Source: Pyrodictium sp. (GTDB lineage: Archaea; Thermoproteota; Thermoprotei_A; Sulfolobales; Pyrodictiaceae). From it: DNA of 60,713 nucleotides. Shown here piece by piece: positions 1,311 through 54,081 of this stretch (positions are counted from its first letter, which is position 1; the number at the start of each line of letters is the position of its first letter). The DNA lies in NCBI GenBank assembly GCA_015662475.1, contig DQUB01000055.1:1-60713 (forward strand), given 5' to 3'. The translations under genes were made by a program, and so were the position numbers. The notes below the pieces were generated by a model. The model was not told where the DNA came from. It did no database searches and saw only the letters and a program-made list of their open reading frames with translations.

Positions 1311-2762
1311 CCGCCATACAGTCTTTCCACCTGGATAATCGTACAATTGTATTCCTAGTCTTCTAAGCTCTGCTCTTATTTCATCTGCAATATCGTATAG
1401 CTTACGCTTTCTTAGCTCACCCCTTACACGTACTATCAAATTCACTAGATCTTCAACCATCTTCTCGTGTTCTAGTTTGACAACACCGTACAGAACGTCA
1501 TCTAGTACGCCAAATACGTAGTTGAAATCTTCAAACACCCTATAGGCTCTTACAGCTGCAACATACATTTCACCAGGCACAATATCTCTGTTTACAATTC
1601 TAACAAGTTCCATTATAGCTGCAAGCGCTTTTGCTGTATTGAAATCGTTGCTCATCGCATTATGGAACTCCATATATGTTTTCTCAACCGTAGTAATCAC
1701 TTTCACTTCTCTATCGGTTAGCTTTGCTGGCGGAGTAACAGACCCTATAATCTTTCTAAGGTCTTCAACAGCCATTCTCAACCTTCTAAGATTTGCTCTT
1801 GCCTGTTCCAGCGCATCTTCGCTATAGTCTAGCTGTGTCCTATAATGGGCGCTCAATAGCCAGAGACGGAGAGTTTCAGCTCCCCATTTCTTTACAGCTT
1901 CTCTTAAAGGTATTATGTTGCCAAGACTTTTACTCATTTTCTCGCCATGTACGGTTAGATACCCTGTATGCAACCAATACTTGACCCAAGGCTTTACACC
2001 AAATAGCGCTTCTGATTGCGCACGTTCATTTTCGTGGTGAGGGAATATCAGGTCTTGGCCACCACCATGTATTTCAAATTGTCTACCAAGATACTTGGAT
2101 GACATAACGCTACACTCTATATGCCAGCCAGGTCTCCCACGACCCCAAGGCGCCTCCCAATACGGTTCTCCAGGTTTCCAAGCCTTCCAAAGCGCAAAAT
2201 CGTATGGTTTCTTCTTCTCTTTCAACACTTCTACTTCCTGTCTCCACTCCTCCGGGTTTTTTAGACCACTTAGACTTCCATAGTCAGGGTACTTGTCAAC
2301 CTCGAAATAGACGCTGCCACTTGGTGCTACGTAGGCATAGCCTTTGTCTATAAGCTCTTGAATAAATTCTATTATTTCGTTTATGTGTTCTGTAACTCTA
2401 GGATGTATATCGACTTTTATCTTGAGCTTCTCAAGCATTTCGAAATAGTCTTTGGTATATATGTCGACAATTTCTCTCCAATCTTTGCCTTCGCTTCGCG
2501 CTCTATTGATTATCTTATCGTCTATGTCTGTTATGTTTTGCACATGTATGACGTTAAAGCCTCTGAGCCTAAAATATCTTTTAATCGCGTCGAAGGCAAC
2601 ATAGGTTCTAGCATGGCCCAAGTGCGTATAATCATACACTGTAGGTCCACAAACGTACATGCGGACAAGTCCAGGCTTAAATGGGGTGAAAGTCTCGAGT
2701 TTGCGGCCCAAAGTGTTAAATACTTTTATGCTCGGTAGCTCTGTCCATGCCAGCGTTTGCAC
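1296..2762 (-). CDS. cysS: cysteinyl-tRNA synthetase
   Basis: Class I HIGH-type motif HLGHARTY and KMSKS motif KMSKSLGN. CysRS-typical [10 protein letters not shown]. Confidence 0.95.
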
Positions 2763-2822
2763 TAGCTAAGTCACCAGATATAGGGTAGAAACTTAGCTGT
2801 AGGTATTATAGGGTAGCTTGAA

Positions 2823-3983
2823 GTGGTTAGTGTGCTCTACCGTGTTACAGGGTCTCTACTTGAAAAAGTGTTGAGGGACAAGGAAAAATTACGAGATAAA
2901 GTAGAGTCGATGATAGATAGAAATGCTGTTAAGAGAGCATTGGAAGATGGACATGCGAGAAGACGGCCTAGACCATGTGGTATGACTATACATACAAGCA
3001 TTGGATGTAAGTTTGGCTGCATCTACTGCTATGTCCCTGATATGGGTTTTCCAATGAAACCTCGACCATACCCTTTAACAGGGTTGGAGCTTGTCTATGC
3101 TCTGCTTAACAACCCCTACTTTCTCCCAGGACCTTACGGTACATTACTTGCCTTTGGCTCTGTTACAGAACCATTCATGGAGGAGGCTGTTGAACGCACT
3201 CTTGACTATCTTGAGAAAACTCGAAAGTTTCTTGGAAATCCAACACAAATATCCACTAAAGCTTCTATAGGTGAAGAACTTCTTGACAAACTTTTACGAG
3301 TTATGGATCCCCAAATAAGCTTTCTAGTAACAGTTATAACGATAAAACATGCTAAAAAACTAGAGCCTAATGCACCAAAACCCGACGATCGATTTGAAAC
3401 TATAAGAAGGCTTTCTAAAGCCTCAGTACATGTCACACTTTTCCTAAGACCCATAATACCGGGGTTAACAGACGCTGAAGTCCCAACACTACTTTCTAAG
3501 GCTAAGGAGAGTGGGGCAAAAGGTGTTGTACCAGGTAGCTTGCGTGTTACACCAGGCATACTTCGCAGGCTAAAATTGGCTGGGCTTGATGTTGAAGAGG
3601 TAAAACGTAGACTACCTCGCCAACCCAGAAACCCCAAAGACCAAGTTACAATTAGAGAACATGATCTAAAACGTCTTGTAGACATTTATGCTAAGAAACT
3701 TGGCCTACGCGTATATCCCTCATCTTGTGCAGCAAATATAGAAGCTCATAACCTTGCCTGCTACTCCTGCAACTGGGGACCATGTGGAGATCCTCGTAAA
3801 CTACCTAGTGTGGAGGAAAACGATGTTAAAGATGCTGTCGAAGTTTTTGGGCTAAGACCCACTAAGCTAGTAGTTAAAGGGAATAAGATCGTTGTCCATG
3901 TTAAAGATGGCGACCAAAGAACCAAAGATGTTGTAAGTGTTATCTTGTCAACTGTCACAAAACGAGATGTTGTTGTAAGATAA
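2823..3983 (+). CDS. radical SAM protein (SplB/photolyase-like family)
   Basis: CxxxCxxC cluster motif CKFGCIYCY near the N-terminus. Length is typical for the family. Confidence 0.8.
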   Translation: MVSVLYRVTGSLLEKVLRDKEKLRDKVESMIDRNAVKRALEDGHARRRPRPCGMTIHTSIGCKFGCIYCYVPDMGFPMKPRPYPLTGLELVYALLNNPYFLPGPYGTLLAFGSVTEPFMEEAVERTLDYLEKTRKFLGNPTQISTKASIGEELLDKLLRVMDPQISFLVTVITIKHAKKLEPNAPKPDDRFETIRRLSKASVHVTLFLRPIIPGLTDAEVPTLLSKAKESGAKGVVPGSLRVTPGILRRLKLAGLDVEEVKRRLPRQPRNPKDQVTIREHDLKRLVDIYAKKLGLRVYPSSCAANIEAHNLACYSCNWGPCGDPRKLPSVEENDVKDAVEVFGLRPTKLVVKGNKIVVHVKDGDQRTKDVVSVILSTVTKRDVVVR

Positions 3984-4083
3984 AAACCATTTTATGTCAA
4001 ACAACACAAATACTCTTCGCCAAAGCTTGGATCTGAGGTAGGATGTGGTGTTGATCCTCCCCCGGTCCGTGAATACATCATCG

Positions 4084-4530
4084 CTATTGCTTAGTCAGCT
4101 TCTGAGCCCCGGTCATCGGCAAATTCTTAGGTTTTAGATTAGAGCGTTTTATAGGTAGCTTTAGATGTTCAGCTACTCGTTCAACGATCCAAGCATATGT
4201 AGCGTCACCCTTACTATATCTCAGCTTTAGCTTACGATAAACTGCACGGTATACCATTCGCCCATCAGAGTCGTAGACTTCTATCCAGCCTTTTACGTGA
4301 CCTCTAAGGTTTCTTACTAGACGTACTTGGACAGCATATTCTCCTTCAGAGAGGTTCACGTATAGTGTCTCAGCAGAACCTCTACTATATGTTGGTTTTG
4401 CAGGTTCACGTCTACTTGGTTTGGGAGTTCTAACATTACCTTTAGAGTCGACTATTAGTGCAATATATCTTACTGCATGCTTACCTCTTCTACTCTTACT
4501 CTTTTCTTCACGAAGTATGACTGTTGTCAT
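4084..4530 (-). CDS. hypothetical basic protein, last gene of a tightly coupled three-gene operon
   Basis: 148-aa ORF whose start overlaps the upstream stop by 4 nt. Lys/Arg-rich N-terminus. No family recognised. Confidence 0.5.
   Translation of the reverse strand: MTTVILREEKSKSRRGKHAVRYIALIVDSKGNVRTPKPSRREPAKPTYSRGSAETLYVNLSEGEYAVQVRLVRNLRGHVKGWIEVYDSDGRMVYRAVYRKLKLRYSKGDATYAWIVERVAEHLKLPIKRSNLKPKNLPMTGAQKLTKQ
4095..4120 (-). repeat. copy 1 of recurring box motif (minus strand: GCCGATGA-N14-AGCTGA)
   Basis: Plus strand reads TCAGCT-12nt-TCATCGGC. It lies inside the last codons of the 148-aa ORF. See copies at 10817-10843 and 45033-45059. Confidence 0.4.
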
Positions 4531-4781
4531 AGTAGCACCTTTGCTTCTACGCCATCACCACAATTAAGCTTTCCAGTCTTCTCTGGGAAGACTATCGTAG
4601 TGAAACGATAGTCCATTCCTGCAGGCATACGCAATTTATAAGGTTCATTTGCTGTTACAACTACATTTTTGACATTTTCACAAACATATTCACTTTCCAG
4701 TTTCGAGTTAACATAGTTTTTCAACACGACTTTGAAACTATCACCTTTTCGAATTATATGCAAGATTGCTAGTTTTCCCAC
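4527..4781 (-). CDS. hypothetical small protein, probably beta-rich
   Basis: 84-aa ORF starting 1 nt after the upstream gene's stop and overlapping the downstream gene by 4 nt. Confidence 0.5.
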   Translation of the reverse strand: MGKLAILHIIRKGDSFKVVLKNYVNSKLESEYVCENVKNVVVTANEPYKLRMPAGMDYRFTTIVFPEKTGKLNCGDGVEAKVLL

Positions 4782-4782
4782 A

Positions 4783-5127
4783 CTACATCTCCCAAGCTTT
4801 CATCTCTACTAGGAGTTTTTCAACCTCGTTACCCAGCTCTACAAGCAGTGCAGCTATGTAAGGATCGCCTAATTCGCTCAAAAGTTTTCGCACTTCAACC
4901 AGCATCAACTTTGTTTCGGCTAGAAGAGGGCGGATGTTGAGGCCCACAAGGGCTATTGTTTCAAGTCTAAGCTTTATACGTTCCAACGCCAATTCGATAT
5001 TCTTGAGGTTTTCACAACCTTCAACTTTTGCAGATCCACACTTTCTTTCAAGTCTTCTAATACGTGCTAATGCTGCACTCAAACTTGCCAACATTTTCGC
5101 TAAGCTACTACGATTAATTGTGGTCAC
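4783..5127 (-). CDS. hypothetical all-helical protein, first gene of the three-gene operon
   Basis: 114-aa ORF with Leu/Glu/Arg-rich heptad-like helices. No family recognised. Confidence 0.5.
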   Translation of the reverse strand: MTTINRSSLAKMLASLSAALARIRRLERKCGSAKVEGCENLKNIELALERIKLRLETIALVGLNIRPLLAETKLMLVEVRKLLSELGDPYIAALLVELGNEVEKLLVEMKAWEM

Positions 5128-5162
5128 TATAACCCCTTAATCTTCTACCCTATCTTCCTCTC

Positions 5163-5429
5163 TTAAGCTTTGGAGCCTTTTCTAATCCTATAAAATCTGA
5201 TTAGGTTTATTGCTGAAAAAGTGAATGCTAAGGAATTGAGAATGGTAAATACAACATCTCGTATCATGATGGCATATATTGTTAGTAGTATGCTACCCGC
5301 AGCATATAATCCGCTCAGGCTTGGAGGTGGTGGTGTACTTCGAAGTGCTAATATCCAACCTAGCACTATTAAGGTCATCCCTGCAACTCCTATGAGTTCG
5401 AAAGCCATACTCGTATACCTCCTTATCAC
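5163..5429 (-). CDS. small integral membrane protein
   Basis: 88 aa with 2-3 hydrophobic spans and a basic C-terminus (RFYRIRKGSKA). Confidence 0.5.
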   Translation of the reverse strand: MIRRYTSMAFELIGVAGMTLIVLGWILALRSTPPPPSLSGLYAAGSILLTIYAIMIRDVVFTILNSLAFTFSAINLIRFYRIRKGSKA

Positions 5430-5483
5430 TACTTGGCGGAAGAAAAGCCATAAAAAATAGAGTTATGATGATGCAGATAGAGG

Positions 5484-5846
5484 GTGTGCTCATTGAGTCT
5501 CGCACGCATAGTGTTTCTAAAGAAGAAGTTGGAGAAGAAATATGGTGCTATCGGCAAGGTTGCTGGTAGATATGTTGAAGCAGGTTACACAGTTAATATT
5601 GGCTTCCAAACAGCTAAAGGGAGTATAGATATTGTTGCAAAGAAAGAAGGTCAGATACTTGCTATAGATGTTATTACGGAATCTGTAAAGGTTGGTACAG
5701 ATGTTATTGAGAAGCTTAAGGAGAAAGCTGCTAGCATAAATGCAAAACCTGTACTAGTCCTCTATGGTTCTGGACCACAACTTCAAAAAGAAGCTCTTAA
5801 GAGAGCAGAAGAGCTCGGTGTAGAGATTAGAAGAGTTAGAAGTTAA
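5484..5846 (+). CDS. small restriction-endonuclease-fold (Mrr-cat/Hjc-like) protein
   Basis: [24 protein letters not shown] resembles a PD-(D/E)xK core. The C-terminal [27 protein letters not shown] resembles the tail of the Mrr catalytic domain. Assignment by eye only. Confidence 0.45.
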
Positions 5847-6796
5847 GGGATTTTAGGCTGTAATAGCCATAGAAGCACCGCTTTTTGTGCATGCAATCTG
5901 TTTTCAGCTTGTAGCCATACAATGCTTTGTGGACCCTCAATTACTTCATCGGTAACCTCTTCTCCTCTACGAGCTGGCAAGCAGTGCATAAATACTACAT
6001 CATGTTTAGCTCTAGCTAGCAAATCTTTTGTCACTGTATAGCCTTGAAGTAATTGACGTTTTTTCTCCGCTATCTCTTCTTCACCCATACTCACCCAAAC
6101 ATCTGTGTACACGACATCAGCCTCTTCAACAGCTTTTTGGGGGTCATCTACAACCTCTATTCTAGCACCACTAGCATTTGCAAACTCATATGCTTTGTCA
6201 AGTACATCTTTGTCTGGAGATAGCTGAGGTGGTGATGCTACAACCATGTTTATTCCAAGCATAGCTGCTGCTATAATTAGACTATGAGCAACATTACTTC
6301 TACCATCGCCTACGAAAACCAGTTTTAAACCTTTGAGCCTGCCTTTAACCTCTAAAATTGTTAGCATATCAGCTATTGCTTGTAGAGGATGCTCTTTATC
6401 ACTAAGCATATTGACTACTGGTACACTCGAATACCGTGCAAGCTCGAGAAGGTTTTCATGGCGATACACTCTAGCTGCTATTAGGTCAACGTATCTTGAA
6501 AGTACTCTAGCTGTATCCTTTATAGGCTCACCACGACCCAACTGTGTTTCCGACCAAGTTAGAACTATCGGGTACATACCAAGCTGGACTGCTGCAAGCT
6601 CCATGCTAACTCTTGTTCTCGTGCTCGGCTTTTCAAATAGGAGAGCTATAGTGTAGCCTTTCAAAACATTGAGTACACGTTCACCACTATAATAACGTCT
6701 TTTGAGATACTGGGCAAGCTCTATTATGCGGTTAAGATCCCATGGTGTTAGATCAGCTATGGAGAGAAGATGCCTTGGCGTTTTAATCACCTTCAA
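5843..6796 (-). CDS. argF: ornithine carbamoyltransferase
   Basis: [26 protein letters not shown] and HCLPA motifs, in the order typical of OTCase. TTG start. Confidence 0.9.
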
Positions 6797-6826
6797 TATT
6801 GTGCTTGTGTGGGGGTATATTAGAGC

Positions 6827-6879
6827 TCAGTTCATGGGAGTTTCAACATCCTTTTTCAGCGACCGCTCCTCTACATCAT
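6827..6879 (-). ncRNA. candidate box C/D sRNA
   Basis: Minus strand reads ATGATGT-13nt-CTGA-aaaagg-ATGTTGA-12nt-CTGA. Both the C and C' boxes carry one mismatch. It lies in the 116-nt gap between two minus-strand genes. Confidence 0.4.
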
Positions 6880-6912
6880 TGCCAATAGATTATTTTTGTG
6901 GAACAGGTTTAT

Positions 6913-7191
6913 TTACGATAGGTCTATTAGGAGAGCACCACATTTCATCTCGACAAGCTTTTCAACAACCTCTATAATATCTTGAGCATGTTCACACGTT
7001 AAGTGTATCCCTATTTGCATGTAAGGAAGACGTTGTTCCACCGATACTTTCCTTTCAATAGCGAGTTTAATCAGGCAGCTTTTTAGCGAAAATACAGCCC
7101 AGGCGGTACTTACAACACTTTTCTGCGATATTTGAGCAAGCTTTTCAGATACTTCTCGAAAACATTGTATCAGTTCTTCTGGTGTACGCAC
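6913..7191 (-). CDS. hypothetical protein
   Basis: 92-aa ORF with protein-like composition, co-directional with argF. Confidence 0.45.
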   Translation of the reverse strand: MRTPEELIQCFREVSEKLAQISQKSVVSTAWAVFSLKSCLIKLAIERKVSVEQRLPYMQIGIHLTCEHAQDIIEVVEKLVEMKCGALLIDLS

Positions 7192-7290
7192 TCTAATACC
7201 CGCTTTTAAAGTGAAACATGCTATCTTCTCCAGCCAACATCACCCTTTTAGCCACAGTATGCCACCTCTCACATTTAGTGGTAGTAGATT

Positions 7291-8103
7291 TTGAACGTAA
7301 AACGATCATTTGTAATACCATTTTACAAGTGTTTGCTTGGTTTAGCTGAGCCAAAACCATGTGCTAGTATTGACGTACACCGCATACTAACGTCCATCGT
7401 AGCAGCTGCAGTCTATGTTGATGATGCTTACAAAATAGGCTACAGTTATGGTTTGGAGGGAACTTTGAAAGGTTACGGTGACTTGATTTTAGAAGCTGCA
7501 AGATCTATAGCTGTTGAAGGTGGCGACATATCGACACTTGTAGGCCTAATAACCTACACTGCAGCATATGGTTTTGCAAAAGCACGTGGTAGAGAAAGCT
7601 TAGAACACGTATTAGATGGTGCAAAGAGGATAGTATCAGCAACCTCTTACACTGATGCAGTGAAACTTTTAGAAGCACTAAAAGTGTTAGGCTACAACGA
7701 AGTACTGTATCTGCTTGAAGAGAAGGGCATCACAAAACATAGAATCGAAGCAGAGTATATGAATGTTGAAGACTTGTTGAGAGAGGCAAGTGGCACAGAA
7801 CTTGCATTCATGAATCCACATACACTTGCGCAGGTTATACGTTTGGCTAAAGAATGTGTTGAGAAGTATAGAGTTAGAAGGCCAGTATGCATATGGCATT
7901 ACATATTACATGCTAACGTTGAAAGTGAACTTAAAGAAAAAGTATGGGATGCATTCCGCATACTTGTAGCTCATAACTGCAATGTTAAAAGAGCGCTAGC
8001 CTACATCTCGGAAGAGTTACGCGAATGCCAACGCCTCAACAAGAACTACACACTACTTGCTAAAGCATTTCTCGTAGCACTCTATGTTATCGAGCTATTC
8101 TAG
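7291..8103 (+). CDS. hypothetical protein
   Basis: 270-aa ORF, TTG start. No motif recognised. Confidence 0.6.
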   Translation: MNVKRSFVIPFYKCLLGLAEPKPCASIDVHRILTSIVAAAVYVDDAYKIGYSYGLEGTLKGYGDLILEAARSIAVEGGDISTLVGLITYTAAYGFAKARGRESLEHVLDGAKRIVSATSYTDAVKLLEALKVLGYNEVLYLLEEKGITKHRIEAEYMNVEDLLREASGTELAFMNPHTLAQVIRLAKECVEKYRVRRPVCIWHYILHANVESELKEKVWDAFRILVAHNCNVKRALAYISEELRECQRLNKNYTLLAKAFLVALYVIELF

Positions 8104-10157: not shown

Positions 10158-10785
10158 GAAATCATTGCAAAACCCATTACATAATCTCATCTTTTTCTTC
10201 AAAGAGCTTAGACGACTTGCAAGAATAAGCGATGCGCATAGCATAGCTCGTAGACTTTTTGTCACTAATAGTTTTGACGGACTCATATCAACACTTGGTA
10301 TAATTCTTGGCGGATACCTTGGCAACGTAGAAGATCCTGCAACATATATTTACACTGTTGCTGGCGGTATGCTTGCACTTGGAATTTTTAGCGGCATGAT
10401 AGCAACATATCTTTCCGAGAGAGCTGAACGGTTAAGAGAGCTTCATGAAACTGAGAGAGTTATGCTGCACAAACTGGATGACAGCATATATGCAAAGGTT
10501 GCACGCTATGTACCAGTATATGTGGCTTTCTGGAGTGGGATAGGTGCACTCCTACTACCCCTACTAACACTAATACCATTTGCAGTAGCGTTGTATCTTG
10601 GAACAGATTTTCCACTGGAAATAACTATTGCAGCTTCAACTTCAATAGCACTAGTGGAACTATTCCTCATAGGCTGCTACTTGGGGAAAATAAGTGGTGA
10701 AAGTAAGCTATTGAACGGACTTAAATTTGTCGGAATAGGATTAACCGCCGTCATAACATTACTAGCCTTAAAGGTTGTTTTTTAA
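10144..10785 (+). CDS. VIT1/CCC1-family membrane protein (putative Fe/Mn transporter)
   Basis: DGLISTLGIILG motif, central helical linker and C-terminal TM bundle. Confidence 0.8.
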   Translation: MLESEKSLQNPLHNLIFFFKELRRLARISDAHSIARRLFVTNSFDGLISTLGIILGGYLGNVEDPATYIYTVAGGMLALGIFSGMIATYLSERAERLRELHETERVMLHKLDDSIYAKVARYVPVYVAFWSGIGALLLPLLTLIPFAVALYLGTDFPLEITIAASTSIALVELFLIGCYLGKISGESKLLNGLKFVGIGLTAVITLLALKVVF

Positions 10786-10789
10786 GGCC

Positions 10790-10850
10790 TCAGTACAGCG
10801 AAGAGATCATCAACATTCAGCTCCGCCGGAATACTTCATCGGCCACCTCC
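10790..10850 (-). repeat. copy 2 of recurring box motif, embedded in a C/D-like arrangement
   Basis: Minus strand reads GGAGGTGG-CCGATGA-15nt-CTGA-atg-TTGATGA-13nt-CTGA. An ATTTAA TATA-like element lies about 20 nt upstream of CCGATGA. Both flanking genes are on the plus strand. Confidence 0.35.
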
Positions 10851-29157: not shown

Positions 29158-29230
29158 AATGTGTCTTGGCCACCTCCGCTAGAATATTTGGTAGGGGTTT
29201 GGGATGTTTAAAAAGTTAGTGTATGTGGGG

Positions 29231-29295
29231 ATGAAGATGTTTATGGGGACTGAAACTTTGACTGTTTTGATATGATGATTGGGGACCTCGCCTGA
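29231..29295 (+). ncRNA. candidate box C/D sRNA
   Basis: ATGAAGA-12nt-CTGA-18nt-ATGATGA-13nt-CTGA with a GGG/CCC terminal stem. The C box is degenerate and the internal loop is long. Confidence 0.35.
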
Positions 29296-29323
29296 CCCAA
29301 AACACCATTTTCATGGATTGTCA

Positions 29324-34497: not shown

Positions 34498-34560
34498 AAG
34501 AGTCCCAAGCTATACTATTGGTTGGGGAGGAGGGTAGATTAAACAACTCGCTTTGAAGAT

Positions 34561-34612
34561 GTGATGACTAAAGGCCTCTACTGATAAGAGTGATGACGCT
34601 TTAGGCCGCTGA
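34561..34612 (+). ncRNA. box C/D sRNA (2'-O-methylation guide)
   Basis: GTGATGA-13nt-CTGA-taaga-GTGATGA-12nt-CTGA, all four boxes canonical. TATA-like ATTAAA lies about 20 nt upstream. D guide CGCTTTAGGCCG is complementary to the conserved archaeal 16S GGCCUAAAGCG. Confidence 0.85.
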
Positions 34613-34623
34613 ATCAAATCGTG

Positions 34624-44067: not shown

Positions 44068-44091
44068 GTGTATGTTGGCTATTCGAAGGTG

Positions 44092-44148
44092 GTGATGAAA
44101 GACTCCAATAACGAAATAGTCTTGATGTGTGGGCTCCACCCCTTCTGA
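44092..44148 (+). ncRNA. box C/D sRNA with two guides against one 16S rRNA region
   Basis: GTGATGA-12nt-ACGA-aatagtc-TTGATGT-16nt-CTGA. The 16-nt spacer pairs with archaeal 16S AAGGGGUGGAGCCUGC (two G-U pairs). The 12-nt spacer pairs 9 nt with AUUGGAGUC, about 10 nt downstream in the same rRNA region. Confidence 0.85.
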
Positions 44149-44156
44149 ACCGCATA

Positions 44157-44974: not shown

Positions 44975-45032
44975 TTACCCCCATCTTCGACTGACTAGCC
45001 TCTGACTTGTACGCACGCACCCCCGATAATAC

Positions 45033-45086
45033 TCAGCTGGACTAGGACCTTTCATCGGCAACCTCATTCCCGGATACACTCATCAT
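45033..45086 (-). repeat. copy 3 of recurring box motif, embedded in a C/D-like arrangement
   Basis: Minus strand reads ATGATGA-12nt-ATGA-ggttg-CCGATGA-15nt-CTGA. The GAGGTTGCCGATG core is shared with copy 2. Confidence 0.35.
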
Positions 45087-45173
45087 CTCCTACAACCCCT
45101 CAAGTAAGTCTAGTCTTACGGGACGGAATTACATATATCAACCCAGCTATAGTAGCATAGTAAGACTTGGGGT

Positions 45174-50391: not shown

Positions 50392-50469
<78 letters not shown>

Positions 50470-54003: not shown

Positions 54004-54081
<78 letters not shown>

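Follow-up and report, generated by a model that had tools for sequence, protein, structure and literature searches.

A recurring sequence motif in a Pyrodictium contig very probably marks parts of three different C/D box small RNA genes

Archaeal C/D box small RNAs (sRNAs) contain two kink-turns (k-turns), one formed by boxes C and D and the other by the internal boxes C' and D', and both are bound by L7Ae. Nop5 and fibrillarin assemble on the L7Ae-bound RNA, and fibrillarin 2'-O-methylates the target nucleotide that pairs with the guide base located five positions upstream of box D or D'. Genes of this type are well known and common in archaeal genomes. Here we analyse a 60,713-nucleotide (nt) stretch of DNA from Pyrodictium sp. 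(contig DQUB01000055.1 of GenBank assembly GCA_015662475.1, positions 1 to 60,713), hereafter the window, in which the plus-strand motif TCAGCT-N12/13-TCATCGGC recurs at three places. Judging from sequence comparisons, each motif copy is very probably part of a C/D box sRNA gene of its own; the three genes, which are not homologous, all lie on the minus strand: copy 1 at 4056–4120, copy 2 at 10786–10844 and copy 3 at 45033–45090. Our verdict is that these are ordinary C/D box methylation-guide sRNAs, further members of guide families that have already been catalogued in other Thermoprotei.

The closest described counterparts are found in the sRNA table of Dennis et al. (2015; PMC4644070, Additional file 1), an RNA-seq catalogue that carries a sequencing-coverage column. 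In that table, the guides of copies 2, 1 and 3 are listed, respectively, under Ignicoccus hospitalis sR25 (IHOsR25), I. hospitalis sR208 (IHOsR208) and Sulfolobus acidocaldarius sR131 (Sacs-R131). The predicted targets given there are positions C1523 and G1548 of 23S ribosomal RNA (rRNA) for sR25, and the targets listed for sR208 are U2128 and C2161 of 23S rRNA; sR131 is entered as 'NP/NP', without a predicted target, in a table that predicts rRNA targets only (PMC4644070).

As far as the published tables go, each of the three Pyrodictium loci shares at least one guide with its counterpart and differs from it in other parts. Copy 2 shares its antisense elements UCCGGCGGAG and CUCUUCGCUG, directed at both strands of one 23S hairpin, with I. 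hospitalis sR25 and the Pyrobaculum sR01 family (PMC4644070; PMC6009581). The guide order in sR25 is the same as in copy 2 (PMC4644070), whereas in the sR01 entries of the Pyrobaculum RNA-seq catalogue the two guides are swapped between the D' and D positions (Lui et al., 2018; PMC6009581, Table S1). The box variants, linker and terminal helix of copy 2 differ from those of sR25 and sR01, and the 13-nt spacer of its D guide shifts the predicted methylated base by one, to a G here versus the neighbouring C in sR25 according to our reading of the printed sequence. Copy 1 resembles the listed sR208 in its D guide (UUCACGGACCG), long D'–C' linker and non-consensus boxes (in sR208, AUGAAC as box C and UUGA as box D). 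Unlike sR208, copy 1 has the AUGACC/GGGA combination, as do most of its related loci, carries a target-less D' guide inside a coding sequence and is linked to a family-specific gene for a protein of 148 amino acids (aa). Copy 3 has the same D guide and box D (AUCCUAGUCCAG-CUGA) as the published sR131 (PMC4644070), but the two RNAs have unrelated 5' halves and the guide of copy 3 is assigned, with covariation, to the D-loop of tRNA-Gly. Two Rfam models align over their full length with all four boxes in register and with scores below the gathering threshold: snoPyro_CD (RF00095) to copy 2 (33.5 bits vs. a gathering score of 45, E = 7e-4) and sR28 (RF01136) to copy 3, at 45031–45090 (30.3 bits vs. 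39, E = 1e-4). Both models were presumably built from Pyrococcus-type sRNAs with other guides.

In the window, exact matches to TCAGCT-N12/13-TCATCGGC are found at 4095–4120 (N12), 10817–10843 (N13) and 45033–45059 (N13), which are the three loci listed in an earlier note on this DNA; a search of the window for a fourth exact match returned none. The note had estimated that far less than one such occurrence is expected by chance, and it was right: dinucleotide-preserving shuffling of the window (n = 100) produced no matches vs. three in the real sequence. A genome-wide search, which the note had proposed, covered the whole assembly (1.48 Mb in 218 contigs, 82% complete) and detected four matches to GCCGATGA-N11–16-AGCTGA, compared with a random-sequence expectation of ~0.07 (by simple arithmetic) and none in the reversed control. 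The fourth match, which sits on contig C190 in a second version of copy 1, is not independent because C190 is collinear with positions 2143–7345 of the window. The GCCGATGA sequence on its own is not enriched, with 42 occurrences in the genome vs. ~45 expected, as would be the case if the motif recurred by pure chance in non-functional sequence. However, the absence of matches in 100 shuffles and the presence at each locus of a full second half, conserved orthologs and targets (see below) leave pure chance with a negligible probability.

The earlier note had pointed out that on the minus strand the motif looks like a C-type box, cCGAUGA, followed by a D-type box, CUGA, with an odd spacing of 14–15 nt. 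This interpretation was correct in kind, but the C-type box is AUGAnnn, located 3 nt further downstream, and the three copies belong to three unrelated sRNAs, not to a single element. The odd spacing arises because the box was read 3 nt too early. In the AUGAnnn register, copy 2 reads AUGAAGU followed by 12 nt and CUGA, copy 3 reads AUGAAAG followed by 12 nt and CUGA, and copy 1 reads AUGACCG followed by 11 nt and CUGA; the G that precedes AUGA is the first loop base of the k-turn. This register is confirmed by the orthologs, which show the same one. We also considered CCGAUGA as box C with 15-nt spacers and dropped it, since both the genome catalogue and the orthologs show the AUGAnnn register.

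In copies 1 and 2 the motif spans box C, box D' and the D' guide between them, and in copy 3 it spans box C', box D and the intervening D guide. Each locus has a complete set of four boxes, the extra TGATGA and CTGA boxes that had been noticed beside copies 2 and 3 do exist, and the guides are 11–13 nt long (11 and 13 nt for the D' and D guides of copy 1, 12 and 13 nt for those of copy 2, and 12 nt for both guides of copy 3). The box C/box D pairs are AUGAAGU/CUGA in copy 2, AUGAUGA/CUGA in copy 3 and AUGACCG/GGGA in copy 1, and the respective D'/C' pairs are CUGA/UUGAUGA, AUGA/AUGAAAG (both degenerate) and CUGA/AUGAUGU. Each of the three RNAs is predicted to fold with C/D and C'/D' k-turns and to pair with target RNA through its 11–13-nt guides; 11–12 target pairs are seen for four of the guides, namely both of copy 2 and the D guides of copies 1 and 3. 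For the analysis of individual copies, conservation was searched in 151 genomes of the order, with a reversed-pattern control for copy 1 and a control for copy 3, and rRNA targets were taken from the 16S–23S operons of five genomes of the same family.

The 59-nt copy 2 gene (10786–10844, minus strand) reads GGCC-G-AUGAAGU-AUUCCGGCGGAG-CUGA-AUG-UUGAUGA-UCUCUUCGCUGUA-CUGA-GGCC and has a score of 6 out of 7 in our catalogue of sRNA candidates (see below). The 5' strand of its terminal helix (GGCC, 10841–10844) forms 4 base pairs (bp) with the 3' strand (GGCC, 10786–10789) and, together with the k-turn loop base G10840, provides the GCCG of the motif. Box C (AUGAAGU, 10833–10839) is AUGAAGU or AUGAAGG in all five orthologous loci, always 12 nt before box D'. 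The D' guide AUUCCGGCGGAG (10821–10832), whose last two bases are the AG of the motif, makes 11 of 11 Watson–Crick pairs, flush with box D', with the 23S segment CUCCGCCGGAA in five out of five same-family rRNAs. Box D' (CUGA, 10817–10820) is CUGA or CCGA in the orthologs, and box C' (UUGAUGA, 10807–10813) is represented by GUGAUGA, GUGAGGA, AUGAGGA or AUGAUGA. The 13-nt D guide UCUCUUCGCUGUA (10794–10806), which is followed by box D (CUGA, 10790–10793), makes 12 pairs, one of them G–U, with the 23S segment ACAGCGAAGAGG, starting 1 nt off box D.

In all five rRNAs, the two target sites of copy 2 form opposite strands of a hairpin, the D site 24 nt upstream of the D' site. Copy 2 would be a dual guide for both strands of this 23S rRNA hairpin, with predicted methylation sites at G1457 and G1482 (in the numbering of a relative, L009). 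The sRNA as a whole approximates the antisense of this hairpin (L009 positions ~1454–1488), with the loop replaced by D'-linker-C'. For this reason, the two-guide pattern also matches the antisense strand of rRNA genes: it is found in 27 of the 151 genomes, where 22 of its 27 places correspond to the 23S gene read in antisense and the remaining five, the window included, are sRNAs. Across these five loci (the window and the orthologs in four other genomes of the order), the D'–C' linker varies from 3 to 12 nt and the terminal helices of the orthologs show compensatory changes (GCC/GGC, GGGG/CCCC and GGGGUG/CACCCC). The 3' end of copy 2 abuts the stop codon of a convergent open reading frame (ORF) of the VIT1 family, which ends at 10785.

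The copy 1 gene (~65 nt, 4056–4120, minus strand) has the structure GCC-G-AUGACCG-GGGCUCAGAAG-CUGA-13-nt linker-AUGAUGU-AUUCACGGACCGG-GGGA-GG. It starts with GCCG (4117–4120), which consists of a helix strand and the loop base, and continues with box C (AUGACCG, 4110–4116), the D' guide GGGCUCAGAAG (4099–4109) and box D' (CUGA, 4095–4098), the latter two both lying within coding sequence. Further downstream are box C' (AUGAUGU, 4075–4081), the 13-nt D guide AUUCACGGACCGG (4062–4074) and the variant box D, GGGA (4058–4061). The UUCACGGACCG part of the D guide makes 11 of 11 pairs with the 23S segment CGGUCCGUGAA in all five same-family rRNAs, which points to U2050 of 23S rRNA (L009 numbering) as the predicted site. 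The pattern UGA-N4-UUCACGGACCG was found in 52 of the 151 genomes, in 53 places (two in this assembly and a single one in each of 51 relatives), whereas the reversed control was found in two; in all 53 places, UGAnnn stands at a fixed distance before the guide.

Box D of copy 1 deviates from the usual CUGA, and its assignment relies on a comparison of 44 related loci. AUGACC(G/U) was picked as box C in 29 of them and, by eye, is also present in L073, where the script chose another box. Positions 3–4 of box D are GA in 44 out of 44 loci, and D positions 1–2 covary with C-box positions 6–5 (CC/GG, UC/GA, AC/GU and GG/CC), so that both positions are paired in 32 of the 44 loci, whereas 2000 shuffles averaged 20.9 and never exceeded 28. 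Because of this covariation and the presence of GA in every locus, we read GGGA as the real box D of a variant k-turn, and the copy 1 RNA would be closed by this unusual AUGACC/GGGA pair.

As the earlier note had stated, copy 1 lies inside the last codons of a protein gene. The 5' half of the sRNA extends over the stop codon (4084–4086) and the 12 codons before it in the ORF for the 148-aa protein (4084–4530, minus strand). Since the 5' half lies inside the end of this conserved gene, we infer that copy 1 is probably cut out of the transcript of that gene. The encoded basic protein is present in 26 of the 26 family genomes, with 47–66% identity in 24 of them, a truncated match at 43% and a second copy on contig C190 at 87%; in nine out of nine family genomes that have both this gene and the copy 1 guide, the sRNA is located directly downstream on the same strand. 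Searches of Pfam and NCBIfam assigned no family to the 148-, 163-, 84- or 114-aa ORFs, and a related-locus search seeded with the 148-aa protein returned no matches. That the D' guide within the coding sequence lacks a target agrees with the observations of Lui et al. (2018) on sense overlaps at gene 3' ends, as far as that source goes (PMC6009581).

The contig with the second version of copy 1, C190, is collinear with the window (2143–7345) over its whole 5.1 kb at ~80% nucleotide identity. The sole stretch that cannot be aligned is the intergenic part just downstream of the copy 1 sRNA, and similarity resumes exactly at 4055. This contig is either a segmental duplication or a contig of a related population that has been binned into the assembly.

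The 58-nt copy 3 gene (45033–45090, minus strand) reads GGAG-AUGAUGA-GUGUAUCCGGGA-AUGA-GGUUGCCG-AUGAAAG-GUCCUAGUCCAG-CUGA and lies 58 nt upstream of the ATG of a 163-aa ORF on the same strand. Its box C is AUGAUGA (45080–45086); judging by eye, without a tally, a box of the RUGAUGA type is found upstream in most of the 20 related loci. Box C is followed by the D' guide GUGUAUCCGGGA (45068–45079), the degenerate box D' (AUGA, 45064–45067), the linker GGUUGCCG (45056–45063), to which the GCCG of the motif belongs in this copy, and box C' (AUGAAAG, 45049–45055). The 3' part is formed by the D guide GUCCUAGUCCAG (45037–45048), whose last two bases are the AG of the motif, and box D (CUGA, 45033–45036). 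An alternative parsing of copy 3, with GCCGAUGA as box C, a degenerate C' and CAGA-GGC as box D, was rejected, given that the related loci and the sR28 alignment place RUGAUGA upstream as box C.

The D guide of copy 3 makes 11 of 11 pairs with CUGGACUAGGA, a sequence from the D-loop and D-stem of the tRNA-Gly(UCC) of this genome, which is its only exact match in the assembly besides the antisense of the sRNA gene itself; a comparison with the rRNAs of the five relatives found nothing beyond 8–9 nt. The guide with its boxes is present, at no more than one mismatch, in 35 of the 151 genomes, representing six of the 13 families in the order, whereas the control is present in two. Guide–target covariation was checked in four relatives with a changed copy 3 guide. 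In G124, a U to A change in the guide is mirrored by the complementary change, A to U, in each of the three tRNA-Gly genes, and in G099 a G to A change in the guide is accompanied by the matching C to U change, again in all three tRNA-Gly genes. In G039 and G106, the change is limited to the base beside box D and is uncompensated. The guide would accordingly be directed at the D-loop of tRNA-Gly, the predicted site being the A after the conserved GG (A20 in our own numbering). A search of the literature on sR131, on names of the Um20/Am20 type and on methylation of the tRNA-Gly D-loop in S. acidocaldarius found no paper that names this target, which is not proof that it is unpublished.

The AUG of the C-type boxes could also be taken for a start codon. 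The earlier note had proposed, as an alternative, that GAGGUG is a Shine–Dalgarno sequence and, together with AUG, opens tiny ORFs: one encoding MKYSGGAEC in copy 2 and, in copy 3, an upstream ORF of 26 aa (44975–45055). On this reading, the latter would be translationally coupled to the 163-aa gene. The sequence features behind this proposal are all there: copies 2 and 3 do continue with (C/A)ACCTC, both ORFs exist as described, the one in copy 3 stops directly before the ATG of the 163-aa ORF, and ATTTAA is positioned for a transcript start near the AUG of copy 2. However, the AUG is a part of the RUGA box core, and the lengths of the linkers between the boxes vary by non-multiples of 3. Across the 21 loci with the copy 3 guide (this one and the 20 related ones), the frame opened at box C' begins with ATG in 13 cases and with GTG in eight and runs for anywhere from 9 to 60 codons, and the only residues that are conserved are PSPA(E/D), which are encoded by the guide and box D. 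As for copy 2, the conservation of its peptide is fully explained by the antisense match to 23S rRNA. We therefore regard translated tiny ORFs as extremely unlikely; the other inference made in the note, that the motif is conserved at the level of RNA and not protein, was correct.

C/D box sRNAs, the reading that we favour, appear to be numerous in this genome. A catalogue scan of the assembly for pairs of box-guide-box halves in which one or both guides are antisense to the rRNAs of the relatives yielded 45 candidates, compared with 7, 8 and 15 in three shuffled genomes. Both guides matched rRNA in 18 candidates, with 0, 0 and 0 in the shuffled genomes, and beyond the three loci discussed here the genome contains ~40 further sRNA candidates. 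The 39 candidates with scores of at least 3 comprise 78 half-units, in which the guide is exactly 12 nt long in 59 cases, the C-type boxes are RUGAUGA, RUGAAGA, RUGAGGA or RUGAUGU and the D-type boxes are CUGA (48), CCGA (17) and a few others. The proteins of the methylation complex are encoded as well: fibrillarin (PF01269, E = 5.6e-107) at 693–1370 and Nop5 (PF01798, E = 1.1e-56) at 31–528, both on contig C188, and L7Ae (PF01248, E = 8.8e-33). The window itself carries archaeal genes, such as NMD3, and the nearest relatives of its phosphoglycerate mutase come from metagenome bins of Thermoprotei/Desulfurococcales, with identity of no more than 59%.

Against this background, nine of the 14 fixed bases of the motif (GAUGA and CUGA) are the cores of the C/D boxes at a fixed guide distance, and they account for the excess over chance. 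The other five (GCC and AG) are unremarkable given the sRNA background and the post hoc choice of the motif. In copies 1 and 2, GCC forms the 5' side of the terminal helix, where it is paired to GGC or GG past box D, whereas in copy 3 it falls in the D'–C' linker; AG represents the 3'-most two guide bases in all three RNAs, and each guide pairs with a different target. Of the 42 GCCGATGA contexts in the genome, ~8 are sRNA boxes by our own reading, including GGCC-G-AUGA...GA-GGCC forms on contigs C43 and C168. The same form is also frequent in the Methanopyrus list as published (PMC4644070).

It could be argued that the shared flanks make GCCGAUGA-N-AGCUGA one dedicated RNA element, for example an L7Ae-binding k-turn in the leaders or tails of mRNAs that tunes their translation or stability. 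There are three independent exact copies, and both GCCG (1 of 78) and AG (5 of 78) are rare among the catalogued half-units; copy 3 is in the sense orientation 58 nt upstream of the 163-aa ORF, copy 1 is inside the end of a coding sequence, and L7Ae has been proposed to regulate translation in archaea (PMC5539422, as far as consulted). Nevertheless, the flanks are a helix strand in copies 1 and 2 but a linker in copy 3. GCCG is missing from three of the four copy 2 orthologs and from all 20 related copy 3 loci, which have GGGA, GCUA, GCUG, GCGG or other sequences before box C' instead, and AG belongs to guides that pair with three different targets. Further, for the ~7 independent half-units with GCCGAUGA, the probability of finding a dinucleotide before box D that three of them share is ~0.14 by our own arithmetic. 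With these facts in hand, we consider a dedicated element very unlikely. Because the roles of GCC(G) and AG differ among the RNAs, GCCGATGA is not enriched and a shared dinucleotide has a chance of ~0.14, their sharing is best read as a coincidence sharpened by the post hoc motif choice.

Several observations count against the assignment of the three loci to C/D box sRNAs. The Rfam scan of the window at gathering thresholds reported two tRNAs only, so that none of the three loci reaches the gathering score, and copy 1 had no Rfam match at all at E ≤ 10. The D' guide of copy 1 has no match to rRNA beyond 8–9 nt, and no convincing target was found for the D' guides of its relatives either; this guide varies among the relatives and has two differences in C190. 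The terminal helix of copy 1 is just 2 bp long (it has at least 3 bp in 35 of the 44 related loci), and copy 3 combines degenerate D' (AUGA) and C' (AUGAAAG) boxes with no evident terminal helix. For the D' guide of copy 3, the matches are weak: 6–8 pairs with the T arm of tRNA-Gly (one of them G–U in the 8-pair match) and 10–11 pairs, two of them G–U, near position 67 of 16S rRNA. A search of the assembly for rRNA genes found none, hence the use of the five relatives as the source of rRNA targets. With GCCG in just one and AG in five of the 78 half-units, three GCCG...AG units nominally exceed the simple sRNA background.

Two further points of this kind concern the expression of copy 2. The A/T-rich ATTTAA element upstream of it ends 15 nt before the helix and may serve a divergent gene for an HD-domain protein. 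The usual TATA distance in archaea is longer than that. ATTTAA is only a candidate promoter of copy 2, the spacing being too short for a helix-bearing 5' end and the divergent gene being another possible user. In one metatranscriptome, available as contigs only and from a library that may also contain DNA, a 211-nt contig fits positions 10769–10847; owing to six differences and unlike flanks we assign this contig to a relative, and it supports neither side.

What these loci might add to the catalogues that we compared is more tentative. It is conceivable, though less likely than not, that the copy 3 family, including sR131, guides ribose methylation of the D-loop nucleotide after G18–G19 in all tRNA-Gly isoacceptors, with guide and tRNA co-evolving, and that the AUGACC/GGGA k-turn of the copy 1 family has Watson–Crick pairs in place of the usual U–U and G–C and, within this archaeal family, is welded to the 3' end of the 148-aa gene, hinting at a functional link. 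The value of the present analysis is mainly in annotation, with the tRNA-Gly D-loop assignment and the covarying AUGACC/GGGA k-turn as small, testable additions to what is known of archaeal methylation guides. At standard Rfam thresholds, the three genes described here are missed, as are at least three others in the window, because this lineage uses variant boxes (RUGAAGA, RUGAGGA, AUGACC/GGGA and CCGA). Recognising such variant boxes accounts for 'conserved non-coding' signals, for spurious tiny ORFs and for nucleotides that are conserved at the ends of genes in metagenome bins of Thermoprotei.

Elsewhere in the window, three additional loci on the plus strand have the features of C/D box sRNAs. 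The one at 29227–29298 reads GGGG-AUGAAGA-12 nt-CUGA-18-nt linker-AUGAUGA-13 nt-CUGA-CCC; its D guide includes an 11-nt stretch antisense to 23S rRNA near position 2168, a similar gene is found on contig C127, and a TTTAAAAA element is located ~13 nt upstream. The second, at 34559–34614, has canonical boxes (GUGAUGA-13 nt-CUGA-UAAGA-GUGAUGA-12 nt-CUGA) and a D guide antisense to 16S rRNA near position 524. The third, at 44089–44150, is a probable C/D box sRNA of the form GGUGAUGA-12 nt-ACGA...UGAUGU...CUGA-ACC, in which the second spacer appears to be longer than 12 nt; it contains a 13-nt stretch antisense to 16S rRNA near position 902, and there is a weak match to Rfam sR30 at 44068–44117 (E = 0.92). 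The window also carries two tRNA-Arg genes, at 50392–50469 on the plus strand and at 54004–54081 on the minus strand, with the anticodons CCG and TCG, respectively.

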